64,000 nucleotides of DNA from Candidatus Acidiferrales bacterium (GCA_035559995.1 DATMAM010000040.1:197452-261451); one strand, 5' to 3'. Shown: positions 25,191 through 58,471, numbered from the stretch's first letter. Notes: generated from the letters alone by a model not told the origin. Numbers and translations: made by a program.

Positions 25191-25228
25191 CTTCCGCCGC
25201 GGCGGCCGTTAATCAGCGATAGCCACAT

Positions 25229-25302
25229 GGCGGTGTAGCTCAGTTGGTCAGAGCACGCGGCTCATATCCGCGGAGTCGACAGTTCGAGTCTGTCCACCGC
25301 CA
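25229..25302 (+). tRNA. tRNA-Met (anticodon CAT; elongator or Ile2-lysidine type)
   Basis: GGCGGTG...CACCGCC acceptor, anticodon loop CTCATAT, T-loop TTCGAGT; no encoded CCA; not initiator (1:72 paired, no GGG/CCC anticodon stem). Confidence 0.85.
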
Positions 25303-26444
25303 TCAATTTTTTCCTTTGATTCTCGCTCACTTACGCTGATCCCCCGCGCGAGATCCGCCAACGCTATCATGTCGTTTTTCGTCAGCCGCTGGGAGGATTC
25401 GGCGTCCGATTGGTATCCAAAATTGGCATCCACGCCTCCGAGATTCTGGACCGCCGAGCGCATTCGTTCCCACACGACGCGGGTGTACTTAGTCGTTGTC
25501 GCGAGGCTCTTGTGCCTGAGCAGGTGCATCATGGCGACCGGATCCCTGACCGACCTGGCCACCTCGTTGCAGAAATAGTCCCGGAGATCCTTCGGCACGA
25601 GCTTGATTCCGGTGAGTTTCTGGATCCGCTTGAACATCCAGCTTCGCCGGTACTGCTTCTTCCCTGTCTTGGGGTTCGGGAAAAGATACTCACTTTCCGG
25701 GAATCGCTTCATCTGCTCAGCGATGATCGGCCTTAGCACGGGCGCGATCGGCAAGAGATTGTAACTATCTTCCGTTTTCGTGCCACGTACGACGAGCCAA
25801 TTCCCCTTGGGGTCGATATCGATCTTGAGCACGCGGTTGGTTTCGTCCTTTCGAAGGCCGGTAAACCGCAGGAAGTCAAAGTACGCGCGATCATTGCCGT
25901 CCAGCGAAGCAGACGCCCGCTCGACGTCGTCCGGATCAAGCGGTGGCTTCACGACCTTTCGGTTCTTGATGAGAGAGAGATCCGCCCGCTCTACGGGATT
26001 CTCGCTCACCAGCCCTTCGCCCTTCGCCCAGTTGAACATCGACCTCAAATCGGTGACATAGTGCCAGATCGTCTGGTTGGTGACCTTGCGATCCTTGCGC
26101 TCCTTCTGCTTACGAATGAACCGCTCAACGTCTTTGTGCGTGATCGAATCAGCCAGGCTCTGCGCGCCGAAGAACGGGATCATGAAACGTTGAAAATTCC
26201 ACCTAAGAGCGTCCACCCTCCATTCCGATCTTCCTCGGAGCGCGCTCTCCACCAGGTACTGCGCGACCACCCGCTCGAATGCGTTCGGCGGAATCTTGGG
26301 CTTTGAGTCGAGCTCGTCGCAGAACTTCCTGTACGCCTTCTCAGCCTCGTCCCGTGTCTCCCAGGCGAAGCGCGCGTAGCGCTTCCCGGCTCGGTAAACC
26401 CGAAATCCCCACTTGCCCCGATTGCATCGATATTCGACTCCCAC
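25248..26444 (-). CDS. int: tyrosine-type site-specific integrase
   Basis: N-terminal AP2-like arm-binding domain (GKWGFRVYRAGKRYARFAWETRDEAEKAY), catalytic R..HLLRH..Y (HLLRHKSLATTTKYTRV); 3' end runs into tRNA-Met (att overlap). Confidence 0.9.
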   Translation of the reverse strand: MGVEYRCNRGKWGFRVYRAGKRYARFAWETRDEAEKAYRKFCDELDSKPKIPPNAFERVVAQYLVESALRGRSEWRVDALRWNFQRFMIPFFGAQSLADSITHKDVERFIRKQKERKDRKVTNQTIWHYVTDLRSMFNWAKGEGLVSENPVERADLSLIKNRKVVKPPLDPDDVERASASLDGNDRAYFDFLRFTGLRKDETNRVLKIDIDPKGNWLVVRGTKTEDSYNLLPIAPVLRPIIAEQMKRFPESEYLFPNPKTGKKQYRRSWMFKRIQKLTGIKLVPKDLRDYFCNEVARSVRDPVAMMHLLRHKSLATTTKYTRVVWERMRSAVQNLGGVDANFGYQSDAESSQRLTKNDMIALADLARGISVSERESKEKIDGGGQTRTVDSADMSRVL

Positions 26445-29548: not shown

Positions 29549-30352
29549 TTACTCCAGCTTGGCTGTCGCTATCCTGAGCAGCGACCGCTTGACCTTATCG
29601 TCGGCTCCACGAGCGCGCTGCGCGGTCATGGAATTCCAATGCCGGCGAAGCCCCTCCATCGACAGCGTGTTGCCTGCCCAAAAGTCGTGGCCCATGGCCC
29701 AGTCGATCATCTCGGCGATAAGCTCGTAGCTGTGGCCATCGCGGCGGTGCATCAGCTCACAGACATGCGCCCATTTTGTTAGCTGCGCGGCCGTTGGCGG
29801 CGACCAGTCCGGCAGCCTCGCCTGAATCCGATCCACGAGCTTCTGCGTCAACTCGATCGCGCGCGGATCGGAGTCTTTTGTTGGTTGGTGACTGTTGGTT
29901 GGTGACTGTTGGTTGGTTGGTTGGTAGGCAGAATTTCGCCGCCGTTTGGCGGACAATTTCCGCCGTCGAGCGGACGCTCTATCTATGCGTTTTTTAATCA
30001 GATCTCCGCAGAAGTCTTGCCAGTCGTGTATCCACAGTCCCTGTTGATTGTCATTTTCCGCCAACCACGTTCCATCCACGTTCCTGCCACGAGCAGTTTT
30101 TTCGGTGTCCAGAAACCGCGCTTCAATGAGCGCGTTGATTAGCTGCTCCGGATCCGCGCCCCAACCGATGGCGCGCGCGATCTGGAGCTTTGAGAAGTTG
30201 GAGAGGTCTCCGTCTTGGGCGTAATCAATCGCCCACCACCACAGCATGTGAAGATAGCCGATCGCTTCGGGTCGGCTCATTTTGGTCAGTTCCATTAGCT
30301 TGTAGAGCTTTGGATGCTCTTTGAGCGATTGGTGCGATTCGATCCAGGCCAT
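29549..30352 (-). CDS. phage replisome-organizer / replication-initiator-like protein
   Basis: N-terminal WIESHQSLKEHPKLYKLMEL...AIGYLHMLWWWAIDYA...IARAIGW resembles phage replisome organizer N-terminal domain; contains iterons; start ATG 30352 or TTG 30367. Confidence 0.5.
   Translation of the reverse strand: MAWIESHQSLKEHPKLYKLMELTKMSRPEAIGYLHMLWWWAIDYAQDGDLSNFSKLQIARAIGWGADPEQLINALIEARFLDTEKTARGRNVDGTWLAENDNQQGLWIHDWQDFCGDLIKKRIDRASARRRKLSAKRRRNSAYQPTNQQSPTNSHQPTKDSDPRAIELTQKLVDRIQARLPDWSPPTAAQLTKWAHVCELMHRRDGHSYELIAEMIDWAMGHDFWAGNTLSMEGLRRHWNSMTAQRARGADDKVKRSLLRIATAKLE
29881..29924. repeat. iteron-like tandem direct repeats inside replication gene (TTGGTTGGTGACTG x2 + TTGGTTGGTTGGTTGG)
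   Basis: Perfect 14-bp duplication followed by (TTGG)4; encodes QPTNQQSPTNSHQPT linker. Confidence 0.6.
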
Positions 30353-30361
30353 AGCTTTCAG

Positions 30362-30395
30362 GTTCAAAAAGGGGGGGCCGCCAGTGGCCCCCCCT
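30362..30395 (-). terminator. rho-independent terminator-like hairpin (GGGGGGGCC-loop-GGCCCCCCC + TTTTTG) between ATPase and replisome-organizer genes
   Basis: Perfect 9-bp GC stem, 6-nt loop, T-run on minus strand. Confidence 0.55.
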
Positions 30396-38299: not shown

Positions 38300-38399
38300 G
38301 TTTTCGTTCCTCCGTTTTTTGTGGCTCTAAAAACACGAAGGGCGCCGGTAGCCTCGAGCCACCGACGCCCTTCCATTAGCCGGTCATTCGACCGACCGC

Positions 38400-38903
38400 C
38401 TATTGCATGCCTTCCGCGTCCGCGGCGATCGGCTGATTGATGGCCACCACACCGGCTTTGCGGTCACAGGGTTCCACTTTCTCGATCGGCCGCTTCAAGT
38501 ATGCGCCGGTCTGCATCATCACCATGGCCACCAGGTTGTCCCCTTCCAGGCTGTCGAATTTTTCTTTCACCCGCGCCTCGGCCAACAGCTTGCACGCCTC
38601 CACCTTGTCCTTCGCGACCACCAGGTGAACATGCTTGCCGTACTCGCCGCTCAGTCCATCAACGTGAGCGCTCGGAATGCGGAAGAGGAAATTCTCTCCA
38701 GCCTTCCCGTTCGCGGGCTTCGCCGCCTTCGCAGCAGCTTGTTTGGATTTGCCTTCGATCGCATCGAGCACTGGGTTGATCAGAGCCAACCCTTGCTTGG
38801 TCGTAGGCTTCTTGCCGCCGAGCAGTATCTGCTTGTTCTTGGCCACCTTTGCGGCAAAAACTTTCACCTTCTTGGTATTGATCACTTCTTTTTTTGCGCT
38901 CAT
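38400..38903 (-). CDS. Lys/Ala-rich (histone-H1-like) putative DNA-binding phage protein
   Basis: N-terminal KK/AK-rich low-complexity region, globular C-terminal half; AAAGGAGA RBS at ATG 38903. Confidence 0.45.
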   Translation of the reverse strand: MSAKKEVINTKKVKVFAAKVAKNKQILLGGKKPTTKQGLALINPVLDAIEGKSKQAAAKAAKPANGKAGENFLFRIPSAHVDGLSGEYGKHVHLVVAKDKVEACKLLAEARVKEKFDSLEGDNLVAMVMMQTGAYLKRPIEKVEPCDRKAGVVAINQPIAADAEGMQ

Positions 38904-38981
38904 GGTTTTGTCTCCTTTGTTTCCCTTCGTTTTTGTCAGACGCCTGGTTCCTTGCCGCTCTGCCTCCAACCTTCATCGCCA

Positions 38982-39182
38982 TCAGTCTTGACGCTTGATC
39001 ACCTCCCTTCTGTCAAGGTCATTGACTGGACCCACCCCGACCTGGGCGACGGTCTTGCAAATCCAGCAGATATAGAAGGCCGGCCAGCGCGCTACGTGCG
39101 CCATCAACAAGCTCGTGGAGGATCCGCACGCCGGGCATTTACTTGCGTGCGCGACTGATATCTCAAAGCGCGATCTCCTCAT
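38982..39182 (-). CDS. small zinc-ribbon phage protein
   Basis: CPACG...CWIC. Confidence 0.35.
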   Translation of the reverse strand: MRRSRFEISVAHASKCPACGSSTSLLMAHVARWPAFYICWICKTVAQVGVGPVNDLDRREVIKRQD

Positions 39183-39805
39183 CTGCCTCCTCCTTGTTTC
39201 TGCTCGCCCGCTTCGGGGTGGCGCGCGCTTGTCATGCGCCGCACATAATCTTCCTGCGTGCGGCTCTCGATTGCCTTCTTGCAGTACCCGCTCCTGATTG
39301 CCTTGATGGCCTTCCCGCCGTGGATATCCAGGGCAACGGTCATGAGAGAGCCGACGGCGGTGCCGGTCCGGCCATGGCCGCCGATGCAGAAAAAGACCAC
39401 GTTCTTGTACCCGTTCTGTTTCAAGAGCTGAAAGAAATCCGCCCAGAACTGCCGGCCCGCGTTGATCACTCCCATGTCCGGCCAGTCGATGATGATCTCC
39501 TCCACGCGGTCCTGCTCGAAATGCCTCTGCAGGGAAGCCCAGCGGCGACCGGCCTTGAGGATCTTGTTCCGGCTGTAAACGCTGTATCCGGTGAGATTCA
39601 CCAAGAGATCGGCCTTCACGCGCGCGAGCTCTTCATAGCTGACCTTCGACTTCGAGGCGCCGTAAATTTGCACGCCTTCCAGGCTGCAGATGAGAGTCGG
39701 CGCGTGCCGGCACTGAACCCACCCGCCATCGTGCTTGCCGTTCTTTTCCTTCTTCTTAAACTCTCCGAGTTCTCCGAAATAATCTTCGATTGCCATGACA
39801 CTCAC
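39179..39805 (-). CDS. protein-tyrosine/dual-specificity phosphatase-fold protein (CX5R P-loop)
   Basis: P-loop VVFFCIGGHGRTGT (HCx5R-type) and upstream IDWPDMG (WPD-loop-like general acid). Confidence 0.6.
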   Translation of the reverse strand: MSVMAIEDYFGELGEFKKKEKNGKHDGGWVQCRHAPTLICSLEGVQIYGASKSKVSYEELARVKADLLVNLTGYSVYSRNKILKAGRRWASLQRHFEQDRVEEIIIDWPDMGVINAGRQFWADFFQLLKQNGYKNVVFFCIGGHGRTGTAVGSLMTVALDIHGGKAIKAIRSGYCKKAIESRTQEDYVRRMTSARHPEAGEQKQGGGR

Positions 39806-39987
39806 TGCTTTCGCTTTTTAATTTCTTCGTGCATCCACTGAAGCACGACATTCTTTGGGAACTGGCTCGATTGCGGCGTATCCTTGAAGAAGAGCCGCCA
39901 CGTTTCGATCTCGCCGAGTTTTTTCACGCGGCGAATGTGCCAGTCATTCCGGTCGCCCTCGACAACTTCTGTCAGGTCCAACTTCAT
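39802..39987 (-). CDS. hypothetical small phage protein
   Basis: 61 aa, coupled. Confidence 0.3.
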   Translation of the reverse strand: MKLDLTEVVEGDRNDWHIRRVKKLGEIETWRLFFKDTPQSSQFPKNVVLQWMHEEIKKRKQ

Positions 39988-40002
39988 CGTCGCTCCTCTT
40001 TC

Positions 40003-42093
40003 TCATGTGAGATAGTTTTTAAGCGGCACCACTTTGTGCTCGCCCAGATACACGCCGTCTTTCTGGACTTCCAAGGCAGCATAGACATCGCCGCTGCCTG
40101 AGAAACTGGGAATCGGCTTCGCTTTCGCGATCGCTTCCTGTAGTTCCTTCGTGACGGGGACGTTCATGGTCTGATAGTGAACCCCGCCTTCCGTCTTGAT
40201 CTGCACGTGGAGCATGTTGCTCTTGATCGTTGCGGCCGCGGCGGTCACCTTTTCCTTGCCGAGCGTTGTGGTGTCCAGGTCGGGAATGATCCACGTGTCT
40301 CCCTTCACGCCCTTGCCTGGCTTGCCGAGCTCGCTCTGCAGATGCTTGAACACTTCCGTTCTGGCTTCGTCGGTCACCTCCTTTTTCATGATTTCCAAGT
40401 ACAGCTTGGCGACACCCCATAGCCCCGCGCAGCGCCGTTGGCTGCCGTCGGGGAAGGTCACGAACCAAGGCTTGCCGGAAGGCATGTAAACAATCTTGAA
40501 CGGCCCGTACTCGCGCGGAGTGTCTTTGCTTGGGAGTTGGTCGGTCGACGCGCGCCCACGCTTCGTTTTGGCGCTCTCACTCGCCTTTTCGACTTCGGCC
40601 ATGAGCCCGTTGAACTCCGCCGGCGCCGTGCTGATCTGATAGACGTGGTGCATGATCGCGATCAGCGGCGAGGCGGGAGATTGCGCGGCGATATCGAACC
40701 AACCGGCGTAGATGAATTTGTTAAACCACCACCCGTTGTTGTGCGCGCAGTTGATCATCACGTTCAAAGCCTCGTTCACGTTCTTTAGGGCTTCCGGAGT
40801 TTTCTCGCGCACGAACCTCACGGTCGCGTTCCACAAATCGGCGGTGGCATCAGAGCACTTGCCCCAGGCCTTCCCGCCGTACCCCGGCCGCCACCCCTTC
40901 TCGTAAAATTTCTTGCGGATCTCGTTGAACTTCTGCACGCTCTCCCTGAGATTCGCCCATGCCTTGTCGTACACCTGATGCCGTGCGAGACCGTGTTTCT
41001 GCTTGTGACGGGCCTCACCGAAGCACGCCGCAAAGCCGAGTTTCAAGGCGAGCATCACGGCGACACCATAGAGGCGGCTTTCCTGCTTGCCGAAGTACGC
41101 TGAGTTGTGGAGAGCGCCGAGCACCAGCATCGCGGCCTCGCGGTAGCCAATCTGGTAGGTCACGCCGTAGGCGATTCCTTTGAGCACTTCCTCCACATCC
41201 TTTTGCGGGATTTCGACGGGAATCTTTTTCAGAGTCTCGCCGACCTTGACCTTGGAGCACATCGCCGGCGTCGTGACATAGGGAATGCCGTTATCCACGC
41301 AGTGCACGCCCCAGTGGGATGAGAGCGCGCCGCCAGGATGGACGACGACCGTGCCGGCCTTGAACTTTGCGCAGATCTCTTTCCACTCGAGCAGATCGCC
41401 GCGCGGCTTTTCGATCTTCGTCACCGTGACCGTCTTAGGAACGAAATCCGGACCCAACCCACTCACCTTCGGGCCGGAGCGAAGCTGGACGAGATAGATC
41501 GCGTCGCGCTTTTCGTTCTGGACGAATTCAAGATACGGCGCGTCGCCTTCCTTCACGCCCGCTTCGGTGAGAATCGCACGCTCGACCTTCTCGTCGTGAG
41601 CAAGAGGCGATTTGTCCGTGGTGCGGATGCTCGCAGCGGCCTTGCCACCCGTCGCGCCGTCATTGCCTTGGCCGACGGTGAGGACACCCGTTGTCCAGAT
41701 CGCGTTATGGCTGGACTTGATGTAGGGCATGAGCAGCATCTCCGCTTTGGGATCCGCCTTGCGCGCTTCCTTCCAGACCTTGAGCGCTTCCGCCTTGTTG
41801 TTGACCGGCCTGGAGTCCACAAACCCGTGCGCCGGCTTGACCGGGCACGGTCGCGCCATCGTGTTCGGTCCGATGGTCAGATAGGGATCCTCAAAATCGC
41901 TTTCCTCGCTCACCAGGCGGAACTGGAGAGTCCGGACCGCGTCCTCCAGGAATTTGAAATTTGCCTTATACTTCTGCAGGGCAACCAAGCCCTTTGCCTT
42001 TTGCGTTCGGGGTTCCACTGTCACGTCTCCTTTCTTCTGTTCGATTCCCAGTTCTTCGAAGGCATCCTGTACGTTCAGCACCATGAATTGCAT
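40003..42093 (-). CDS. large phage protein with PEP-utilising-enzyme-like phosphohistidine (mobile) domain motif
   Basis: VVVHPGGALSSHWGVHCVDNGIPYVTT parallels PEP-utiliser signature GG.TSH..I.ARE.GIPAVVG with identical SH-x8-GIP spacing; ~270 aa N-terminal and ~370 aa C-terminal regions, size like PEP synthase/rifampin-phosphotransferase-type enzymes. Confidence 0.45.
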   Translation of the reverse strand: MQFMVLNVQDAFEELGIEQKKGDVTVEPRTQKAKGLVALQKYKANFKFLEDAVRTLQFRLVSEESDFEDPYLTIGPNTMARPCPVKPAHGFVDSRPVNNKAEALKVWKEARKADPKAEMLLMPYIKSSHNAIWTTGVLTVGQGNDGATGGKAAASIRTTDKSPLAHDEKVERAILTEAGVKEGDAPYLEFVQNEKRDAIYLVQLRSGPKVSGLGPDFVPKTVTVTKIEKPRGDLLEWKEICAKFKAGTVVVHPGGALSSHWGVHCVDNGIPYVTTPAMCSKVKVGETLKKIPVEIPQKDVEEVLKGIAYGVTYQIGYREAAMLVLGALHNSAYFGKQESRLYGVAVMLALKLGFAACFGEARHKQKHGLARHQVYDKAWANLRESVQKFNEIRKKFYEKGWRPGYGGKAWGKCSDATADLWNATVRFVREKTPEALKNVNEALNVMINCAHNNGWWFNKFIYAGWFDIAAQSPASPLIAIMHHVYQISTAPAEFNGLMAEVEKASESAKTKRGRASTDQLPSKDTPREYGPFKIVYMPSGKPWFVTFPDGSQRRCAGLWGVAKLYLEIMKKEVTDEARTEVFKHLQSELGKPGKGVKGDTWIIPDLDTTTLGKEKVTAAAATIKSNMLHVQIKTEGGVHYQTMNVPVTKELQEAIAKAKPIPSFSGSGDVYAALEVQKDGVYLGEHKVVPLKNYLT

Positions 42094-42123
42094 CGCTCAC
42101 CTCCGGTGCAGACGTCTGCAAAC

Positions 42124-42318
42124 CTAACAATCAAGCCGCCATCGCTTGCCGGCCGCGCGCTCGAGGAGCTCGCGCCGTTTGCTACGGTCCAGAGATCGGA
42201 GCCGGCGCGCAACGCGATCGCGGTAGTAGGTGGTGGTGTTGCCGTGCCGATTATTGATGCCAGCGACCCACGTTTTCGCATTGAGGACGCGGAAGGCGTC
42301 GCGGATTTTAGTTTTCAT
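42124..42318 (-). CDS. hypothetical small basic phage protein
   Basis: 64 aa. Confidence 0.3.
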   Translation of the reverse strand: MKTKIRDAFRVLNAKTWVAGINNRHGNTTTYYRDRVARRLRSLDRSKRRELLERAAGKRWRLDC

Positions 42319-42340
42319 TTTTGTGTCTCCTTTTGGTTGG

Positions 42341-42661
42341 TCACGCTGCCTTGCGCAGCTTCTCGATGTGCTTGCACTCTTCGTGGCGAAAGACGTAGGA
42401 CGGGCAACTGCAGACCCAAACCTTGCCGCGAACGCTGACCCGGTAAGTTTTGTCGGGATCGCTGAAGGACCGCACGGTGAACTGCCGGTCCCATTTCGTT
42501 TTTGGCTTGGCCTGCGGGACCGGCGCCTTGCTGCCGGAGCAAACCTTGCACGAGGGGACGTGAAGGTTCTTAAACCACTCGATCGTTTCCGGGCTCAGTT
42601 TTTCCTGTGCCTGCTGTGTCTTTAGCTTCTCAGCGGTTTTGCATCCTGATTTGAACTTCAT
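42341..42661 (-). CDS. SWIM zinc-finger protein
   Basis: C-terminal CxCx(n)CxH (VWVCSCPSYVFRHEECKHI); start at ATG 42661 with GAAGGAGA RBS. Confidence 0.5.
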   Translation of the reverse strand: MKFKSGCKTAEKLKTQQAQEKLSPETIEWFKNLHVPSCKVCSGSKAPVPQAKPKTKWDRQFTVRSFSDPDKTYRVSVRGKVWVCSCPSYVFRHEECKHIEKLRKAA

Positions 42662-43278
42662 TTGTTTCCGTCTCCTTCGTTTGTTCTGGAGCTGCGCGCG
42701 CGCTCGCCCGTTTCGGCCTGACGCGCACGCGCTCGCCCATTCCTTTTGCTTCGTGCCGTAGATGATCATTCAATCGTTTGCCGTTATCGCAGGTGATTGC
42801 CGACCTAGTGATTGTTCACCACCCAGCCACCTCCTCGGTGGACCTGCCCGCGACTGCGCGAGCCGGATCTGCGTCTTTGTTTTTGCCGGCGCATGGTCCG
42901 TAGGCTTATCAGGCAGTACAGACCAGCGGCGCCGACGTTTTCATTTCGCAGGGTGACTTGGTTCCATTTCCCTGCGCCCCGTTGGTAAGCGGAAAAGGTT
43001 TTGAAGGGAAAACTAAGGTGCGGATTCTAAAATAAGGTGCGTGCTTTACGTGCGGGGTTTACTTGGCGTGGGTTAGATTCAAGTGTTCGAGGATGCGTCC
43101 GTCAAAAAACCTTGCTCTTTTTTTTCCTTTTTCCTAATGCCTTCCGTGGCTTATCAGGCAAATGGAAGGCGACCTAGTGTTGACGGTCAATCTATTCAGG
43201 CCTACTGGCCAAGAATGCTAGAAGAGGAAAAAGGCCTTGAATCTGTCAGGAATTGCCTATGTCAAAGAACCAATAAGA

Positions 43279-43308
43279 ATCCTATGGGATTCCTATGGAA
43301 TTGTCAAG
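43279..43308 (-). promoter_or_regulatory. consensus sigma70 promoter (TTGACA-18-TAGGAT) driving leftward early/middle operon
   Basis: Minus-strand TTGACAattccataggaatcccaTAGGAT; ~600-nt leader precedes first gene (SWIM protein). Confidence 0.5.
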
Positions 43309-43395
43309 GGGCAAAGACGTTTTTTTGGACCGAAAAAGCCTGAAAAGATAAGGATTTTTTGGGATTTTAGGCGAGGGCCTTGGAGCAAGTCGGTT

Positions 43396-44049
43396 TTACA
43401 GTAGGCTTTCGTCTTTGGCTGGAGCGTTGGCGGCGCCGGGCGTTTCCTGGGCGTGTTTTTTCTTGGCGCGTTTGCTGTCGACAGATCCGGCCTTGGCGCG
43501 CTCGACGTGTTGGTAGGTGAGGCGCAGTTCGTCCGCGCGGGCCTTGTAAATGTCCTTGAACTGATCGGTCTTGTTTTCGATGTGGGAGGAGACCTTGTTG
43601 AAATGGTCCCAACCCCGGCCTTGCTGTTTTCCTTTGAGCGTGTGCTTGTCCAGGGCGTAGTCCGGCACCTCGAGCTTCAGATTCTTCTGGATCCGCTCCT
43701 GGTGGACGACGGTCAAGAAATTATCGGCGAGGCGGCTCTTCTCGGACCGGCACATGGCGAGGATGGCATTCGATAAACAGAGCAGCTCGCTGGCTTGGCC
43801 CGGCCGCGCGACCATTTCGAAGTACATCTCCTTCAGGCTGTGAACTAGCACGATGAGCTGGGGATTGGCCGGGCCGATGTCTTCGCAGGCAATCACTTGG
43901 AGGCGGTGCCACAGGTATTGCGGATAGACTTCTTCGAGCTCCAGGGCCCAGAACATCGCTTCCTCTTCCATGCCCCGGCGGATCGATTTCTGCAGGGCTG
44001 ACATGGCTTCACTCAGATGATAGCCGTTTCGTTTGGTCCGTAGGTCCAT
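43396..44049 (-). CDS. hypothetical 217-aa helical protein, moron-like (own promoter)
   Basis: Good RBS AAGGAA; preceded by consensus promoter in AT-rich spacer; no recognisable domain. Confidence 0.5.
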   Translation of the reverse strand: MDLRTKRNGYHLSEAMSALQKSIRRGMEEEAMFWALELEEVYPQYLWHRLQVIACEDIGPANPQLIVLVHSLKEMYFEMVARPGQASELLCLSNAILAMCRSEKSRLADNFLTVVHQERIQKNLKLEVPDYALDKHTLKGKQQGRGWDHFNKVSSHIENKTDQFKDIYKARADELRLTYQHVERAKAGSVDSKRAKKKHAQETPGAANAPAKDESLL

Positions 44050-44145: not shown

Positions 44146-45105
44146 TTAGGTGGCGTGGCCTTTGCCTTGCTGGCGTAGCAGGTCCTGGGCGTATGAGGCG
44201 ATCCCTGCGTTGGGATGGATCTTCGGCACCCAGCCGAGCAGGTACTTGGCGAGCGTGTGGTCGGCGAAGCAGTGGCGGATATCTCCGGGGCGCTTCTCGC
44301 CCGTATAGCGCGGGGTGATCTTCCCGTCGACCAGGTGCATCGAGAGCATGTTGGCGACAGCCTGCACGGGTAAGGGGATCCCGGTCCCGATGTTGATTGC
44401 GGCTTTGGGCCGGAAGAAGAGGGCGGCCTCGATGGCGGCCGCGACGTCTGAGACGTGGATGAAATCGCGGATCTGAAGACCGTCCTCGTAGATGACCGGC
44501 TGCTCGCCGGCCAGGAGCCTCGAGGCAAAGATCGCAACGACTCCCGTTTCGGCATTGGTGAGAGACTGTCCAGGTCCGTAGGTGTTGAACAGGCGAAGCG
44601 CCGTGACCGGGATGCCGTAGATCTCCCCGTTGATCCGGCAGAGCTGCTCGGTGTCGTACTTGGTCATGCCGTAAACCGAGGCCGGCCGGCACGCGTGCTC
44701 TTCCCTGACGCCGCGCGTTTCAAACCCTTCCCCGTAGACCGACATACTCGAAGCAACAATGATGTGCTGCACGCCGCCGGCGGCAACGATCGCCTGCATC
44801 AAAACGGCCGTTGCATAGCTGTTGGCCAGGACGAAGCGCGCGGGATCCTTTGCACTTTCCGAGACGCTCACACCGGCGGCCAGGTGGATGACGACGTCGC
44901 AGCCGCGGCAACACTCGAGTGTGGCTTCGTAGTTTTCAATCCGGTTAAGGAACACCAACCTAGCCCCGTCGACCATGGTATCCGGAGCTGGACCGTGCAC
45001 AACGGGCTCGAAGCAGTCCTGCACGACCACCTCGTGCTTTTTACCAAGCAGCCGCACAACGTGGCGCCCGATGAATCCGGCGCCTCCCGTAACGAGAATT
45101 CTCAT
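44146..45105 (-). CDS. NAD-dependent epimerase/dehydratase family protein (sugar-nucleotide epimerase-like)
   Basis: MRILVTGGAGFIG Rossmann start, SSMSVYG and catalytic YxxxK-type region; start ATG 45105 with GGGGGA RBS, overlaps upstream stop (ATGA). Confidence 0.8.
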   Translation of the reverse strand: MRILVTGGAGFIGRHVVRLLGKKHEVVVQDCFEPVVHGPAPDTMVDGARLVFLNRIENYEATLECCRGCDVVIHLAAGVSVSESAKDPARFVLANSYATAVLMQAIVAAGGVQHIIVASSMSVYGEGFETRGVREEHACRPASVYGMTKYDTEQLCRINGEIYGIPVTALRLFNTYGPGQSLTNAETGVVAIFASRLLAGEQPVIYEDGLQIRDFIHVSDVAAAIEAALFFRPKAAINIGTGIPLPVQAVANMLSMHLVDGKITPRYTGEKRPGDIRHCFADHTLAKYLLGWVPKIHPNAGIASYAQDLLRQQGKGHAT

Positions 45106-45851
45106 AGATCCCCCAATTCCAGTTTTTGCCGGCGGGCGACGTCCTTCACAACCATGCGCGTCACGCCTCCGGAGACCTGCTCCTGGAGGTAAGCTCCCCA
45201 CTTCCGCTTCAGGTAGTGGCGGTCCGCGCTCCAGCTCCCAGCCGAGATCGCGTGGCGGTTCCCGCCGGCGTTGGTCATGATCTGGTGCTCGAACATGAAG
45301 CGCGTATCCTGCCAGACGATACGGTCCTTGAGAAGTGCCTGCAGGGTGAGGTCGGCATCGGTGTTGTGGCTTAGCGCGGTGTCGGGGAGGAGCCGCCTGC
45401 CGACGAATCCCAAGCAGGGACCGTTTGCCTTGAGGAACCCGAAAGGGTCATAAGGAAAGAAATTGAGAATGTTCGGCGTGATCGCAAAGGAGAAGAGGCT
45501 CACGCCGATCCCCTCCGCGATCGAGGCAGCGTTGAAGATAATCCGGTAAACGGCGACCGGATCCGTGATCACACGCGCCTTGCGCCCGACCAGGCAGATC
45601 ACCCTCGAGACATCATCGTCGAAGATGACAACGCACTTCTCTTTCCGGTGCTCGAGGATCCAGCGCCGGACGCGCGAGACGCCGGCGACATCGTCCGGGT
45701 GGGTGGTAAGCGCGGCGCGAAACTCGCGGTAATCTTCCGCTTCGCTTTCGGCAACGCAGACCTCGGCCGATGGGACCAGGCGAAACGCGCGCCGGCACGA
45801 CTCCACGCGCTTTCGGCTGGGAATGACGATCCGGAGATCCTTCTCCGTCAC
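45102..45851 (-). CDS. putative GT-A-fold glycosyltransferase, paralog 1
   Basis: RIVIPSRKRVESC...VIFDDDV (DxD-like)...; 40-50% identical to adjacent paralog; GTG start overlapping paralog-2 stop (GTGA). Confidence 0.4.
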   Translation of the reverse strand: MTEKDLRIVIPSRKRVESCRRAFRLVPSAEVCVAESEAEDYREFRAALTTHPDDVAGVSRVRRWILEHRKEKCVVIFDDDVSRVICLVGRKARVITDPVAVYRIIFNAASIAEGIGVSLFSFAITPNILNFFPYDPFGFLKANGPCLGFVGRRLLPDTALSHNTDADLTLQALLKDRIVWQDTRFMFEHQIMTNAGGNRHAISAGSWSADRHYLKRKWGAYLQEQVSGGVTRMVVKDVARRQKLELGDL

Positions 45852-46591
45852 AACTCCAGATCCTGCTGGCGGGAAACACGTACTTTGAGGGACACCACCC
45901 GTTTCTGGTACCCGATCCCGATGTACTGTCCCCACTTCTGCTTTAGGTGCTTGAACTCGCGCTGGGTGTTCTCGACGCTTCTCGAGACCGTGTTGCCGCC
46001 GGCTTTGGTGATGAAGTTATGCTCGGCGGCGAAGCGAGAGTCCTGCCACACGATCCGCTCCTTGAGGAGCGCCTGCAAAGAGAGATCCACATCATCGAAT
46101 TGGGTCACCTCGGGATCATAGCGGATTTTTCGATCGAGAATCCCAAGAAGCGCCCCCTCGAGTCGGGTGAGTTGAAACGGCTTGTGCGGGCGGAACTTCC
46201 GCACATCGTCCTGGAAGGGATTGAAGGAGAAGCAACTGATGCCGAGCTCCTCGCAGATGTTCGCTGAGTTGAGGAGGATCCGCTCGATCGCGTGCGGATC
46301 CACGATCCGGCGGGGTCGGAAGCCGACCACGCAGTACAGGCTCCTCACGTCATCGTTGCACTGCACAATCACGCGCTCGTTGAAGTGATCGAGAATCCAC
46401 TGGCGAAGCCGCCCAAGACCGAAAATATCGTTGGGATGGGGAACGATCTTCGCCCCGATGTCCTTGTAATCCCCGAGCTCTTCTTCCGCGACGCACACCA
46501 CGGGATTTTTGAACAGCTTGACCGTCTGCGCGCAGCTCTCCACGCGCCGGCGGCTCGGTATCACGACGAGCATGTCTTTGGCCTCGATCAC
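45848..46591 (-). CDS. putative GT-A-fold glycosyltransferase, paralog 2
   Basis: MLVVIPSRRRVESC...VIVQCNDDV...; start overlaps ParB-like gene stop. Confidence 0.4.
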   Translation of the reverse strand: MIEAKDMLVVIPSRRRVESCAQTVKLFKNPVVCVAEEELGDYKDIGAKIVPHPNDIFGLGRLRQWILDHFNERVIVQCNDDVRSLYCVVGFRPRRIVDPHAIERILLNSANICEELGISCFSFNPFQDDVRKFRPHKPFQLTRLEGALLGILDRKIRYDPEVTQFDDVDLSLQALLKERIVWQDSRFAAEHNFITKAGGNTVSRSVENTQREFKHLKQKWGQYIGIGYQKRVVSLKVRVSRQQDLEL

Positions 46592-47325
46592 GCAGCGGCA
46601 CCTTTCTTGGCCGGCGTTTTTGCGGCCTGAGCGCGGGCCTCGAGCTCCTTTACCCGCTGCATGTACTTGGACCCGTTGATGACCCGCCCGACACCGATGG
46701 TTTTCTTTCCCACGTATCCCGGGACCTTCACTTTCTGCAGACCGAAATGATCCATCGCGGAAAGAAAGTCCCGGCTGTCCTTAAAAAAGACAACGATGTA
46801 ATCGTAATGCTCGTATGGGAGGAGGTCCATTTCTGGCGGGCCGGGGAGCTCGTCCTCGGGCTCCTCGAATCCGGATAGATGCGAACCATTTTCATCCATT
46901 CCGCCGCGCATCTGAAGATCAGCCTCTTGGCGAAGCGGGGCCATATTCAAGCTGTCGTAGAGGTCGGGCATCTGGCTTTCGAGTTCCTTGAGCAGGTTGC
47001 CCAGGAGCTGCTCGTCCCAGTCGCCCCCGACATTGGGGTTATTCAGCGTGATATTGAGCGCCTTCTCCTTCTCGATCGGAAGGTCCACAACCGAACATGG
47101 CACGGTTTTTTCGCCGCGCGCCTTCAGGATCTTGAAACGCTGGTGGCCGGAAACAAGGTTGCCGGTCCGCTTGTTCCACACGAGCGGCTCCACCAGGTCA
47201 AACTCGGCCAGGGATTGCTCGATGGTTTCGTACTCGTGCTCCCCGGGCTGGAGCTCGCGCCTGGGGTTGTACGGGGCCGGGTTGATCTTGCTCACCGGGA
47301 TATCCTGAAGGTTGATCTTTGCCAT
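46588..47325 (-). CDS. ParB/Srx-fold (ParB-like nuclease domain) protein
   Basis: INPAPYNPRREL...LVSGHQRFKI ParB N-terminal domain signature; acidic C-terminal region. Confidence 0.65.
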   Translation of the reverse strand: MAKINLQDIPVSKINPAPYNPRRELQPGEHEYETIEQSLAEFDLVEPLVWNKRTGNLVSGHQRFKILKARGEKTVPCSVVDLPIEKEKALNITLNNPNVGGDWDEQLLGNLLKELESQMPDLYDSLNMAPLRQEADLQMRGGMDENGSHLSGFEEPEDELPGPPEMDLLPYEHYDYIVVFFKDSRDFLSAMDHFGLQKVKVPGYVGKKTIGVGRVINGSKYMQRVKELEARAQAAKTPAKKGAAA

Positions 47326-48779: not shown

Positions 48780-49256
48780 TTAGTTGTCGGCCGCAGCGTA
48801 CTTCAAATTCTGAGCGATCCGGCGCGCCCAGCCGCGCGCATTGTGACCCCAGTTAGAAAGCCGCGTCATGAAATCCAGCCGCTCGGCGAGAAAACGGAGC
48901 AGCGCATCGTTCGGGTCCATCCGATCGTAAGCCACTTGGCTAACCGGACCCCAGTAGCCGTCATCAGCAACTCCGACCGCTCGCTGGAGCATCCGGATCG
49001 CGTTTCCGATCCCGTGGTGAACAGCGGCGTCAAACAGTTGGTAGACAAGCGCATCGTCGAGCTTTGAGGCAACGGGAGCCCAAAAATCGCGCTGGTAGAT
49101 GACCTTTGCCCCGTCGCGCGTGAGATTCTTAATGTCGACGTCAGGATAGGAGCGCTTCGAAATCCCCCAGTTCGTCTCCCCGCCGGGGTCCTCGGGGTCG
49201 TTTGTGTAGCCCCCCTCGTGCCCGAGCGTGCGGTCAAAAGCCGTATCGAAGTCCAT
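48780..49256 (-). CDS. endolysin, glycoside hydrolase family 108 lysozyme-like
   Basis: HEGGYTNDPEDPGGETNWGI GH108 catalytic motif. Confidence 0.8.
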   Translation of the reverse strand: MDFDTAFDRTLGHEGGYTNDPEDPGGETNWGISKRSYPDVDIKNLTRDGAKVIYQRDFWAPVASKLDDALVYQLFDAAVHHGIGNAIRMLQRAVGVADDGYWGPVSQVAYDRMDPNDALLRFLAERLDFMTRLSNWGHNARGWARRIAQNLKYAAADN

Positions 49257-56426: not shown

Positions 56427-56807
56427 TCATCGACACGCCTCGCCCCTGATGACGCCATCCTGGCTCGAAAACGTCCACACGCCACTTCCTTCAGCGCAGC
56501 CAGCAAGAGCCTGGGCCGTGATCGTGAATGACGCCTGCGATCCTTCAACGTGCAGATCCACGTTGTCGCTCCTTCGGTAGCCGCCGAGCGCCAGCTCTTC
56601 GACGGATTGCGCGTAGCGGCTGCGCTGAGAAAAGACATCCTCTTGAGCCGTCGCAGCATACTTGAGATCGGCCCGGACGACGGCGTCGATCGCGCGCTTT
56701 CGATAAGAGACGTATTGAGGGATCGCGATGGCGGTGATGATCCCCATGATTGCGATTACGACCAAGAGCTCGACTAGCGTAAATCCTCTATGCACATCGC
56801 ACCTCAC
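56427..56807 (-). CDS. type IV pilin-like protein (prepilin with class III signal peptide) inside tail module
   Basis: ...HRG/FTLVELLVVIAIMGIITAIAIPQY prepilin peptidase site with Glu+5; C-terminal Cys pair (AGCAEG...GEAC). Confidence 0.65.
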   Translation of the reverse strand: MRCDVHRGFTLVELLVVIAIMGIITAIAIPQYVSYRKRAIDAVVRADLKYAATAQEDVFSQRSRYAQSVEELALGGYRRSDNVDLHVEGSQASFTITAQALAGCAEGSGVWTFSSQDGVIRGEACR

Positions 56808-58363: not shown

Positions 58364-58471
58364 CGCGCGACCTCGACAATCACGAGAGCGACGACTCCAA
58401 CAAATACAAGCACAATCAGCGGCGAGGCCAGGAGAAGGATCAGCGGGTAATGCCACCAGTCCTCCGGCAAA

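Follow-up and report, generated by a model that had tools for sequence, protein, structure and literature searches.

Gene content of the locus

The window, a 64,000-nt stretch of DNA from a Candidatus Acidiferrales bacterium, carries the genes described here on its minus strand. Four open reading frames had been picked out in a sequence-only reading, and all four are confirmed at their coordinates: a small ORF with a SWIM-type zinc-finger motif (42341..42661), a 696-aa ORF (40003..42093), a 208-aa ORF (39179..39805; 205 aa at NCBI), and a Lys-rich ORF of 167 aa (38400..38903). A 64-codon ORF (42124..42318) lies between the SWIM gene and the 696-aa gene and has no family match in Pfam or PHROG. 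Because a 61-codon ORF (39802..39987) follows the 696-aa gene, the 208-aa gene is two genes downstream of it. This intervening ORF matches PHROG 14237 (E = 1.8e-5) and, below threshold, Pfam Toxin_YhaV; it has no tblastn match in loci L001-L049 and is not found at the equivalent position in other loci. The remaining small gene is a 66-codon zinc-ribbon-like ORF (38982..39182), with a sub-threshold match to Pfam Zn_ribbon_3 and one to PHROG 2945 (E = 2e-4).

The SWIM gene is the first of the block and the Lys-rich gene the last. Upstream, an AT-rich gap of ~630 bp contains a promoter-like site (TTGACA-17-TAGGAT, 43279..43307), a consensus match only and a candidate start for the transcription unit, which is overlapped by short direct and inverted repeats. 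Directly 3' of the Lys-rich ORF is a strong terminator-like hairpin (38337..38373) with a 17-bp stem, including eleven G-C pairs, followed by a T-run. These elements bracket the block and fit a single transcription unit, and the counts of promoter-like and terminator-like sites in the region show no excess over shuffled controls.

The two outer genes had been read as a SWIM finger and a histone-like protein. The first ORF does contain the CxCx9CxH motif (as CSCx9CKH), but Pfam SWIM (PF04434) scores below its cut-off (E = 0.011; 15.7 versus 19.6 bits) and the gene is not conserved with its neighbours. The Lys-rich ORF has no relative in Pfam, PHROG, or PDB, including the HU, H-NS, and histone families, so the term ‘histone-like’ is not supported. 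Its only homolog is in the close relative L001, which is also the only locus where homologs of the SWIM and Lys-rich genes lie beside the two central genes.

A probable divergent dikinase with a previously unrecognised third domain

The 696-aa protein has no sequence match in Pfam, NCBIfam, PHROG, or PDB, and its assignment comes from structure and profile comparisons. The AlphaFold2 model (pLDDT 89.4, pTM 0.80) is ordered as an ATP-grasp domain, a phospho-histidine swivel domain, a helical domain, and a variable C-terminus. When the whole chain was searched with Foldseek, the top match was PEP synthase (2ols, E = 2e-5), and rifampin phosphotransferase (RPH; 5hv3, 5hv1, 5hv2) was also matched.

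Residues ~28-214 (41452..42012) adopt the ATP-grasp fold, with invariant residues R81, P82, C83, P84, H89, G90, F91, S94, E118, G141, G146, A147, T148, G150, E189, Q203, R205, and G207. The swivel, or mobile, domain follows at residues ~215-295 (41209..41451) and contains the motif GGALSSHWGVHCVDNGIPYV at residues 254-273 (41275..41334). Within this motif is the predicted phospho-carrier, His260 (41314..41316), the aligned counterpart of the catalytic His in PEP synthase, RPH, and Enzyme I. Both H260 and H264 are invariant across sixty-two diverse homologs. Using hhalign, the swivel matched four to five solved mobile domains from PDB (P = 1.4e-5 and 1.5e-4) with a score of 25.9, while the maximum among 200 shuffles was 19.5 (z about 6.7). 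By its sequence, then, the protein appears to have the mobile phospho-histidine domain and conserved catalytic His by which His-swivel dikinases are recognised.

The motif had been said to match the phospho-His domains of known dikinases in its spacing. This is true of the distance from His to GIP, which is the same as in PEPS, RPH, and Enzyme I, but the distance from GG to His is one residue longer than in the canonical T/S-x-x-GG-x-x-x-H (PMC12167813). In the same way, calling the protein PEP-utiliser-like is borne out by the fold, the hhalign result, and the invariant H260, but not by plain Pfam searches. PPDK_N (PF01326) had no match in the 696-aa protein at E <= 1 and was absent among the families found for the sixty-two members at E <= 10, and hhalign against sixty-seven phage PPDK-type proteins gave P = 0.14. 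PEP-utilisers (PF00391) stayed sub-threshold, with a best E of 0.024 in 2/62 members. The C-terminal PEP/pyruvate-binding TIM barrel (PF02896) had no match in the protein or its sixty-two members.

The third domain, at residues ~296-495 (40609..41208), is all-helical in the model and has no fold match in PDB. It is homologous to standalone phage proteins: hhalign against DLP5 gp142 (phrog_20946) gave a probability of 97% (P = 1e-10), and an HMM built from seventy-two of the standalone proteins matches the 696-aa ORF (E = 3.3e-5). Twelve residues are conserved in both sets (E360, R362, H363, F396, G406, G407, W410, H451, N452, G454, N458, and K459), and the motifs E-x-R-H, GG-x-x-W, and H-N-x-G-x-x-x-N-K are all present in the window protein. 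We refer to this previously unrecognised third domain of the dikinase, which is without a known relative fold, as AHNNG, and predict that it holds the phospho-acceptor site. It has 684 cluster representatives among 1.84 billion proteins.

The last part of the protein (residues ~505-696; 40006..40581) is beta-rich by predicted secondary structure and has no family match. It is missing or replaced in many homologs, and close homologs of 584-588 aa span only 83 per cent of the 696-aa query.

The partner is a PTP-fold protein

The 208-aa protein had been called a genuine Cys-based phosphatase fold because of a WPD-like loop and a CX5R motif, and here the structural and profile evidence agree. Foldseek with its AlphaFold2 model (pLDDT 83.8) returned 661 PDB matches at E <= 1e-3, the best fifty of which are all of the PTP/DSP fold, and the family profile matched PDB PTPs at E = 2.6e-16 and 7.8e-15. 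Pfam PTP-SAK (PF22784) gives the window protein only 19.7 bits against a gathering threshold of 27, while homologous partners score 43.6, 39.5, 30.5, and 30.0 bits, over the threshold, and many homologs carry precomputed PF22784 matches.

The WPD loop (W108-D110, within IIDWPDMGVI; 39476..39484) aligns to those of RPTP-alpha and SsoPTP. The P-loop (C140-T149; 39359..39388) contains FFCIGGHGRTGTA, running from Cys140 to Arg146, and its C140-IGGHG-R146-T147 is invariant in thirty-five homologs and was seen in all 45 of the 45 partner genes inspected. Across thirty-five diverse homologs D110, C140, R146, T147, E180, and Q184 are invariant, with Gln184/Glu180 falling where the Q-loop positions water. 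The protein is a genuine PTP-fold enzyme, and from these residues a putative Cys phosphatase. Thus neither of the two outcomes that would have spoken against the sequence-only reading (a 696-aa protein without a match to phosphohistidine domains, or a CX5R protein with a non-phosphatase fold) was found when both were checked.

Distribution in phage genomes

The two families do co-occur in phages. The dikinase and PTP genes are adjacent in 48/48 informative IMG/VR viral loci, on the same strand, and 33/45 pairs lie within +/-60 nt of each other. This strongly supports a single system formed by the two genes. No further gene family is common to more than eight of forty-nine loci. Conservation stops at these two genes, which leaves the SWIM and Lys-rich genes outside the module.

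Genes found near the fused form include helicase-like AAA_25, AAA_24, and PD-(D/E)XK nuclease genes, and in small phage genomes the pair heads an early-type operon beside the terminase genes. In the window and L001, and only there, the module adjoins two TET-associated DNA glycosyltransferases (TAGT), ParB_N, and a sugar epimerase. Within 8 kb of the fused loci PolA was found in only 1/53, and these loci have no hypB match and one PTP. Domains fused in homologs are zinc ribbons and a left-handed beta-helix, with no host-targeting domain found, and no PADLOC defence-related model matched the module.

AHNNG also occurs as a separate protein in the cultured phages Stenotrophomonas DLP5, Vibrio VH2_2019, and Rhodobacter RcZahn. 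Here its gene sits between two PTP genes, 3' of a canonical truncated PPDK and 5' of DNA polymerase I (the reference being the DLP5 gp137-gp143 type; phrog_18609, phrog_20946, phrog_17568). Gene order in this split cassette is rigid across eighty viral contigs. In 74/74 untruncated loci the AHNNG protein is 3.3 kb downstream of the engine with the two PTPs flanking, and 75/80 loci abut DNA polymerase I, the others being truncated. Genuine domains of both types, PPDK_N (1e-43 to 1e-50) and PEP-utiliser (1e-19 to 1e-25), are present in the engine of the split cassette, and DLP5 gp137 passes NCBIfam NF004531 ‘pyruvate, phosphate dikinase’ (464 bits versus a cut-off of 456). As standalone AHNNG is served by a canonical PPDK-type engine, the region fused 5' of AHNNG in the window holds the engine's place. 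Engine, AHNNG, and PTP together recur in well over a hundred phage genomes, cultured ones included.

Proposed mechanism

Taking enzymology and pairing jointly, we consider the 696-aa protein to be probably a divergent ATP-driven swivelling-histidine phosphotransferase, and the locus a likely three-part, ATP-driven phosphotransfer system in two genes; the activity itself is a prediction. Its basis is the folds, the conserved catalytic residues, the obligate pairing, and the split version with its canonical PPDK-type engine, each of which was observed.

In the first step, judging from the fold and conserved residues, the N-terminal ATP-grasp domain would bind ATP and His260 on the swivel domain would attack the beta-phosphate. 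AMP would then be released and the gamma-phosphate lost, leaving His260~P. This would be the dikinase chemistry of PEP synthase, PPDK, and RPH. In the second step the swivel domain may deliver the phosphate to the AHNNG domain, where a substrate would be phosphorylated at an acceptor site formed by the invariant residues of E360-x-R362-H363, G406-G407-x-x-W410, and H451-N452-x-G454-x-x-x-N458-K459. In the third, the presumably co-transcribed PTP-fold enzyme would hydrolyse a phosphomonoester in the same pathway, with Cys140 as the presumed nucleophile, Arg146 binding the phosphate, Asp110 acting as the general acid, and Gln184 positioning water. The phosphate removed could be that of the product, after its use as an activated intermediate, or one nearby on the same molecule.

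A point against this enzymology is that a kinase and a phosphatase acting on one substrate make a futile cycle unless the steps are separated.

Possible targets and alternative readings

Our tentative choice of target, plausible though short of an even chance, is phage DNA or deoxynucleotides, with the system carrying out a phosphate-activated step in a pathway that modifies DNA or remodels nucleotides. The split cassette beside DNA polymerase I and the helicase-like and nuclease neighbours of the fused form point this way, as do the DNA glycosyltransferases, ParB_N, and sugar epimerase in the window and L001. The DNA of phage DLP3 resists 15/15 restriction enzymes through an unidentified modification (PMC7326821). 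DLP3 is a close relative of DLP5 and carries the cassette, and in the DLP5 annotation there is no hydroxymethylase, thymidylate synthase, or dNMP kinase to explain such resistance. The resistance, which belongs to a different phage, could equally be attributed to the sugar/GT/ParB block of DLP3. All domains and the PTP are basic (pI about 9), a weak point in favour of a DNA or nucleotide target. Against it, no DNA-binding domain was detected in the module proteins, and the fused form is without PolA or hypB linkage. Among the models of the Pfam release searched, none for thymidine-hypermodification kinases or aGPT-Pplase enzymes matched the window protein, the sixty-two members, or DLP5 gp142, and, within the portion of the prophage that the window covers, no TET/JBP or hydroxymethylase partner was found for the two TET-associated glycosyltransferases.

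A more specific form of the DNA reading, which we regard as rather unlikely, is that engine, AHNNG, and PTP make up a widespread phage pathway, not previously recognised, for the chemical alteration of DNA or its precursors through an intermediate activated by phosphate. In it, an oxygen of a base or sugar would receive phosphate from the His~P dikinase, AHNNG would direct the chemistry, and the PTP would strip the residual phosphate. If true, this would explain the DLP3-type modification behind resistance to 15/15 restriction enzymes, and the pathway could make the acceptor for the two TET-associated glycosyltransferases in this prophage.

A rival reading, which we think somewhat unlikely, is that the module serves host takeover or anti-defence and acts on a small molecule or a protein of the host. 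The dikinase would phosphorylate a hydroxyl, perhaps a phenolic or tyrosine OH (cf. the dikinases for phenol and hydroxyacetophenone), or, like RPH, a signalling or antibiotic-like molecule, and the PTP would dephosphorylate host phosphoproteins or reset the mark. The early-type operon head by the terminase, where the pair sits in small phage genomes, is a common anti-defence site; the module stands alone, no further neighbour being conserved; and the PTP has classical features (a WPD-GVP loop and the E/Q motif) that suit aryl phosphates. In addition, those relatives of the engine that have been characterised act on proteins or small molecules, including RPH (PMC4844700), HpeHI/PpsAB (PMC12167813), and VadK (PMC13400623). 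However, the absence of PADLOC matches, the rigid link of the split version to DNA polymerase I, the DNA glycosyltransferases and ParB in the window, and fusions limited to zinc ribbons and a left-handed beta-helix all count against it.

The PTP-fold protein might instead be a phospho-carrier rather than a hydrolase, passing phosphate from His260~P to Cys140 and on to a final acceptor, on the model of the PTS, where Enzyme I, HPr, and EIIA pass phosphate to the Cys of EIIB. That relay begins with a PEP-utiliser swivel domain and ends on the Cys of a P-loop protein, EIIB-cellobiose, which resembles low-molecular-weight PTPs; the strict and tight coupling of the two genes would also suit a relay. 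We consider it very unlikely, given that the WPD Asp and invariant Gln184/Glu180, with which true PTPs carry out hydrolysis, are retained in the PTP, that the strongly conserved AHNNG fused right after the swivel already takes the acceptor-site position, and that split systems have two PTP paralogs. The sub-threshold Pfam mobile-domain and PPDK_N models would fit an ATP-grasp ligase forming amide or peptide bonds, with a coincidental GG...H...GIP motif, but this is highly improbable when the invariant His260 and its motif outscore each of the 200 shuffles in their alignment to the catalytic His, PEP synthase is the top whole-chain match, and in split systems a canonical PPDK_N and PEP-utiliser engine serves AHNNG and PTP.

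Finally, engine homologs in cultured phages are annotated ‘pyruvate phosphate dikinase’ and discussed as auxiliary metabolic genes in published genome papers (PMC9229204), and DLP5 gp137 is over the NF004531 cut-off, but a PPDK or PEP synthase enhancing glycolysis or gluconeogenesis in the host is barely credible and effectively refuted by domain content: the cultured-phage proteins show only PPDK_N and PEP-utilisers, the absence of the PF02896 pyruvate/PEP domain from them and from the window protein contradicts a glycolytic role, the third domain is the unrelated AHNNG, the PTP is always present, and NF004531 is a truncated form whose type example, M. tuberculosis Rv1127c (VadK), has proved to be a regulatory kinase that autophosphorylates on His rather than a PPDK (PMC13400623).

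Comparison with known systems

The plant starch cycle couples a glucan-water dikinase with DSP-family glucan phosphatases (SEX4, LSF2, laforin). It is, to our knowledge, the only well-known case in which a His-swivel dikinase and a Cys-based phosphatase of the PTP/DSP fold act as a pair on one polymer. Its likeness to the window system is one of logic only. The plant cycle is eukaryotic, its genes are unlinked, and it involves carbohydrate-binding modules, of which Pfam found no significant example in the window proteins (CBM_6, E = 0.16).

Among PTPs, the top sequence and structure matches of the 208-aa protein are archaeal or atypical enzymes (SsoPTP, Tk-PTP, VHZ/DUSP23) and PTP-SAK, with which it shares the P-loop CxGGxGRTGT, the Asp loop, and the E/Q motif. 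Unlike the archaeal and atypical PTPs, it carries a conserved C-x-H motif in an extension at its N-terminus, is phage-specific, and always adjoins the dikinase.

PEPS and PPDK have their first two domains in the same order as the window protein (ATP-grasp, then swivel), with the catalytic His aligned to His260, and PEPS 2ols is its best whole-chain structural match. In contrast to them, the window protein is without the PEP/pyruvate TIM barrel, and its GG-to-His loop is longer by the one residue. The Thr that precedes the catalytic His in PEPS/PPDK, a regulatory phosphorylation site (PMC12167813), is Ser in the window protein. RPH and other small-molecule dikinases (PMC4844700) place the substrate domain between ATP-grasp and swivel, while in the window protein it comes last. 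The two substrate domains have no detectable similarity, with no Pfam-level sequence match, and unlike RPH the window protein is phage-borne and obligately paired with a PTP phosphatase.

VadK (Rv1127c, NF004531; PMC13400623) also consists of ATP-grasp and swivel without the pyruvate domain and works with separate partners. HpeHI, CreHI, and PpsAB (PMC12167813) are a precedent for one machine being fused or split with phosphotransfer via the swivel His, though the split point differs: their ATP-grasp domain is separate, whereas in the phages it is the acceptor domain. They belong to catabolic operons and act on phenolics, with no phosphatase partner described (PMC12167813).

Closest in content are the phage PPDK genes of DLP5, VH2_2019, RcZahn, and Virtus, which like the window engine have ATP-grasp and swivel without the pyruvate domain. 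The DLP5-type cassette shares the AHNNG domain and PTP subfamily with the window, whose engine is too divergent to be detected by HMMs of DLP5-type or VadK-type engines. Engine and AHNNG are one polypeptide in the window and separate proteins in the DLP5 type, and the single PTP of the window, without hypB or an adjacent PolA, contrasts with the two PTP paralogs, hypB, and adjacent DNA polymerase I of the cassette. The sequence-only reading knew of no described phage system of this composition. Canonical versions of the dikinase do carry a ‘PPDK’ annotation in cultured phages, which means that the parts themselves had been seen before. The locus represents a new and widespread phage form of a known enzyme type.

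Prophage setting and gene order

The prophage spans from about 25.2 kb to past 64 kb of the window, with its right end outside. A tyrosine integrase gene (25248..26444, minus strand) overlaps a tRNA-Met gene (25228..25304, plus strand), and this region (25228..26444) is likely the attachment site and left prophage end. A replication-initiator-like gene (29549..30367), a GH108 endolysin gene (48780..49256), and tail and baseplate genes (50-62 kb) are also present. Two adjacent tail/baseplate proteins (56804..58456 and 58472..59353, both minus strand) each match the ubiquitin-E1 FCCH domain (PF16190; E = 3e-16 and 3e-12) and also carry phage baseplate-hub and DUF2460 domains.

The module genes of interest are all on the minus strand, and the ORFs described in an earlier, sequence-only reading are present where it had placed them. 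They form the series SWIM, orf64, dikinase, orf61, PTP (the Cys-based phosphatase), a Zn-ribbon ORF, and a Lys-rich ORF. A promoter-like consensus match upstream of SWIM (43307..43279, minus strand) and a terminator-like hairpin with a 17-bp stem after the Lys-rich ORF (38373..38337, minus strand) bracket the series and fit a single transcription unit, though matches of this kind are not commoner here than in shuffled sequence. In the AT-rich 630-bp gap upstream of the SWIM gene, three copies of a repeat of about 19 nt resembling ATAAGAATCCTATGGGATT lie at 43273..43366. Two of them overlap in a palindrome with 10-bp arms over the promoter-like site, and these elements may be an operator.

The 61-codon ORF between dikinase and PTP (39802..39987, minus strand) matches PHROG 14237 (E = 1.8e-5); a YhaV-toxin match (E = 0.003) is below the cut-off and was not counted as evidence. 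This ORF was not found at the same position in any other locus examined. At 43396..44049 (minus strand) is a 217-aa protein consisting of an MgsA/RarA C-terminal-like domain alone (PF12002, E = 1e-10), lacking the AAA+ ATPase domain. It matches PHROG 33349, labeled 'ATPase' (E = 3e-22), and is 75% identical to the version in L001, a viral contig closely related to the window. Long antisense ORFs opposite the dikinase (e.g. 41338..42438, plus strand, 366 aa) are without homologs, overlap a conserved minus-strand gene, and are artefacts of the roughly 59% G+C content.

The 696-aa protein

The 696-aa protein (40003..42093, minus strand) has no significant family in Pfam, PHROGs, NCBIfam, or PADLOC, and no relative in the PDB by phmmer or by family profile. 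Matches to triosephosphate isomerase (E ~0.06) are due to chance, and a CBM_6 match (E = 0.16) is too weak to count as evidence. The protein belongs to a large, wholly unannotated family in which the invariant residues include H260 and H264.

Residues 254-273 hold the motif GGALSSHWGVHCVDNGIPYV, which the sequence-only reading had assigned to the mobile phospho-His (swivel) domain of PEP-utilizing enzymes. Pfam gave this assignment little backing, with PF00391 appearing faintly in 2 of 62 family members (best E = 0.024); profile-profile comparison did bear it out. Because the PF00391 signal was so faint, we harvested mobile-domain sequences from the PDB and compared them by hhalign, with shuffle controls, to the family sub-alignment of residues 215-300. 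The harvest started from bait sequences, and the comparison used only the PDB sequences retrieved with them (2ols, 9dae, 8a8e, 5fbs, and 3eza). The match was significant with four PDB sequences (P = 1.4e-5) and with five (P = 1.5e-4), scoring 25.9 versus 10.2 +/- 2.3 (maximum 19.5) over 200 column shuffles. In the alignment, His260 coincides with the catalytic His, as does the G-I-P after it with the G-I-P of the mobile domains; the rest of the protein had no hhalign match to the PDB mobile domains.

The AlphaFold2 model, for which 62 homologs were used, is confident (pLDDT 89.4, pTM 0.80) and comprises an alpha/beta region (residues ~28-214), a small beta/alpha unit (~215-295), an all-helical region (~296-495), and a beta-rich C-terminus. 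From the model, residues 28-214 are a predicted ATP-grasp domain. Residues 215-295 are probably the swivel domain, as judged from the profile-profile statistics and a whole-chain Foldseek search.

The partner phosphatase

The 208-aa protein (39179..39805, minus strand) carries IIDWPDMGVI at residues 105-114 and FFCIGGHGRTGTA at residues 138-150. All of its own Pfam scores are sub-threshold (for PTP-SAK, 19.7 bits where 27 are required), while homologous partners pass the PTP-SAK threshold with up to 43.6 bits. A profile of 35 PTP homologs matches receptor PTP-alpha (E = 2.6e-16) and SsoPTP (7.8e-15) in the PDB, in alignments that span the WPD loop, P-loop, and Q motif. Residues D110, C140, G142, G143, G145, R146, T147, G148, C175, E180, and Q184 are invariant among the homologs. 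The best 50 of 661 PDB matches to the AF2 model (pLDDT 83.8) all have the PTP/DSP fold; they include Tk-PTP, SsoPTP, ShufPTP, DUSP5, and VHZ, with RNA 5'-phosphatases at ranks 21-42. Profile, invariant residues, and model all agree with the phosphatase fold first proposed for this ORF, and a rhodanese fold is excluded.

Pairing across viral loci

A degenerate-pattern scan of IMG/VR yielded 49 loci encoding a relative of the 696-aa protein. A PTP homolog adjoins the dikinase in 48 of them, and the remaining locus (L030) stops at a contig edge; the pairing noted in the window is upheld across these loci. The two genes are always on the same strand, with the dikinase followed by the PTP except in three near-identical contigs. 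Spacing is within +/-60 nt in 33/45 pairs, with many 4-nt overlaps, some overlaps being overestimated because locus ORFs were called from the most upstream start codon. Every partner PTP contains C-x-G-[GS]-[HK]-G-R-[TS].

In all-against-all clustering of 1,130 neighbor ORFs, no other family was common to more than eight of the 49 loci. Some neighbors recur without being obligate: to one side, terminase subunits, and to the other, AAA_25, AAA_24, and PD-(D/E)XK replication/recombination genes. The SWIM, Lys-rich, MgsA_C-like, epimerase, TET-associated glycosyltransferase (TAGT), and ParB genes recur only in L001, so the SWIM and Lys-rich genes, earlier regarded as flanks of the module, are not general companions. 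The 'histone-like' reading of the Lys-rich ORF was also dropped, as this ORF has no detectable relative. Cellular genomes almost never carry the family (3 MAG matches among 185,579 species representatives), and so few loci do not allow a host range to be read.

A split cassette in cultured phages

Using the window PTP as a tblastn query, we recovered eight cultured-phage records. The match is part of a conserved cassette in three of these phages, Stenotrophomonas phage DLP5, Vibrio phage VH2_2019, and Rhodobacter phage RcZahn. Its order is 'pyruvate phosphate dikinase' (PPDK), small ORFs, PTP1, a hypothetical protein (hypA), PTP2, another hypothetical protein (hypB), more small ORFs, and DNA polymerase I (PolA). 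The module is present in cultivable phages of Stenotrophomonas, Vibrio, Rhodobacter, and Rhizobium. The 'PPDK' proteins of the cassette (645-734 aa) contain PPDK_N (1e-43 to 1e-50) and PEP-utilizer (1e-19 to 1e-25) domains, and a PEP/pyruvate domain was not found in them. DLP5 gp137 passes NCBIfam NF004531, a truncated-PPDK family with a member, M. tuberculosis Rv1127c, that is the His-autophosphorylating regulatory kinase VadK (PMC13400623). Of the two cassette phosphatases, PTP2 (DLP5 gp143) is orthologous to the window PTP over its full length (P = 2.8e-27); PTP1, a paralog, is shorter (P = 1.5e-19).

Scanning IMG/VR with hypA gave 80 split-cassette loci with nearly invariant offsets from hypA: the PPDK-type engine (ATP-grasp plus swivel) at -3.3 kb (74/80), PTP1 at -0.55 kb (80/80), PTP2 at +1.1 kb (80/80), hypB at +2.2 kb (69/80), and PolA at +3.4 kb (75/80). 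Engine or PolA is absent only where a contig end cuts the locus. The hypB protein (e.g. DLP5 gp144, L051:5521-6354; also in L058-L137) is about 250-300 aa long, lies between PTP2 and DNA polymerase I, and faintly resembles the C-terminal portion of RsmE, a SPOUT methyltransferase (NCBIfam E = 0.004).

PTP2 of DLP5 (L051:4629-5417) is named 'thymidylate synthase thyX' in GenBank, and its Pfam matches are to PTP/DSP only. The members of PHROG 17568 matched here are PTP-fold phosphatases, and the 'thymidylate synthase' label of this curated family is wrong, evidently propagated from the GenBank annotation of gp143. We therefore rejected it as a functional clue.

A helical domain common to both forms

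Homology links the standalone protein hypA (DLP5 gp142; phrog_20946) to the third, helical domain of the window protein (hhalign probability 97%, P = 1e-10). Both share the motifs GE-x-RH / TRE-x-RH, G[YF]GG-x-x-W, and AHNNG-x-x-FNK, and we call this the AHNNG domain. An HMM built from 72 standalone hypA proteins picks up the window ORF (E = 3.3e-5) as well as the large protein in 19 fused loci. E360, R362, H363, F396, G406, G407, W410, H451, N452, G454, N458, and K459 are at least 85% conserved in both fused and standalone sets. Among 1.84 billion proteins, the domain is found in 684 cluster representatives at E <= 1e-3. Most of the top 150 matches have the fused architecture, the domain beginning some 250-650 residues from the N-terminus of a protein about 500-1,100 aa long.

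HMMs of the phage PPDK-type proteins miss the fused family, comparison of the ATP-grasp region by hhalign gives no significant match, and neither hypB (gp144) nor the last ~190 aa of the 'PPDK' proteins from cultured phages resemble any part of the window protein. Since the fused form has no hypB and shows no linkage to PolA, the conserved core consists of engine, AHNNG, and PTP. A canonical engine serves AHNNG and PTP in the split systems, and the predicted ATP-grasp fold and swivel-type His occupy its place in the window protein; a divergent fused dikinase is thus the most economical reading.

Possible targets

We tentatively suggest that the module acts on DNA or nucleotides. The split cassette rigidly adjoins PolA, and the fused form has replication and recombination neighbors. 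Directly upstream of the module, a block resembling those for DNA hypermodification (44146..47325, minus strand) encodes a ParB_N protein (46588..47325), a paralogous pair of TAGTs (45848..46591 and 45102..45935; PF20691, E = 3e-8 and 1e-7), and an NAD-dependent sugar epimerase/dehydratase (44146..45201), all on the minus strand. A TET/JBP dioxygenase, C5-methyltransferase, or thymidylate-synthase-like hydroxymethylase, which would make the usual acceptor, was not found among the scanned prophage ORFs in the window. A comparable block in DLP5 comprises epimerase, WcaG, WecE, methyltransferase, GT4, and ParBc genes, and the DLP5 annotation includes no hydroxymethylase or dNMP kinase. DNA of its sister phage DLP3 resists 15/15 restriction enzymes tried, via an unidentified modification (PMC7326821).

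Action on a host protein or a small molecule is somewhat less probable. In its favor, the module is self-contained and has an early position in small phages, the 208-aa partner has classical-PTP features, and the substrates of the engine's characterized relatives are small molecules or proteins. That no DNA-binding domain was detected counts against DNA or nucleotides as the target. As substrate clues, the extra domains of longer homologs offer zinc ribbons and a left-handed beta-helix only. The target can be tested directly, because cultured phages carry the cassette beside their DNA polymerase and one relative has an unidentified DNA modification. Its identity could reveal new DNA-modification or host-takeover chemistry.

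Proposed mechanism

Following the mechanism of rifampin phosphotransferase and PEP synthase (PMC4844700), ATP would bind the grasp domain of the fused dikinase. His260 would take the beta,gamma-pyrophosphate with release of AMP, and the gamma-phosphate would be hydrolysed. Phosphorylated His260 would then swing to the AHNNG domain, where the acceptor would be phosphorylated. The PTP, with its complete hydrolytic apparatus, would subsequently remove a phosphomonoester; a relay like that of the PTS, passing phosphate from His to Cys, seems improbable. That the large protein is a ligase rather than a dikinase we regard as more improbable still. In published phage papers the gene is interpreted as an auxiliary metabolic gene of glycolysis (PMC9229204), but its domain content contradicts this, and we consider the 'PPDK' label in that sense a misreading with hardly any chance of being right.

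Comparison with known systems

In the full-text literature we found no functional study of the dikinase-PTP pair and no link between a dikinase and phage DNA modification; a mention of a 'swivel' in a survey of viral NAD+ concerns a DNA ligase. To our knowledge, there are only a few His-swivel dikinases, and each has a distinctive role, in PEP synthesis, starch phosphorylation, rifampin inactivation, or phenol activation. The kinds of enzyme in the module are already known. What is new is a putative, highly divergent phage dikinase branch with what sequence profiles and models suggest is a novel acceptor domain, the obligate coupling of this branch to a PTP-fold phosphatase, and the recognition that the fused metagenomic family and the cultured-phage 'PPDK' cassette belong together. 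The GG-to-His loop of the 696-aa protein differs from the T/S-x-x-GG-x-x-x-H signature in being one residue longer (PMC12167813). HpeHI, CreHI, and PpsAB illustrate that such dikinase machines occur both split and fused (PMC12167813).
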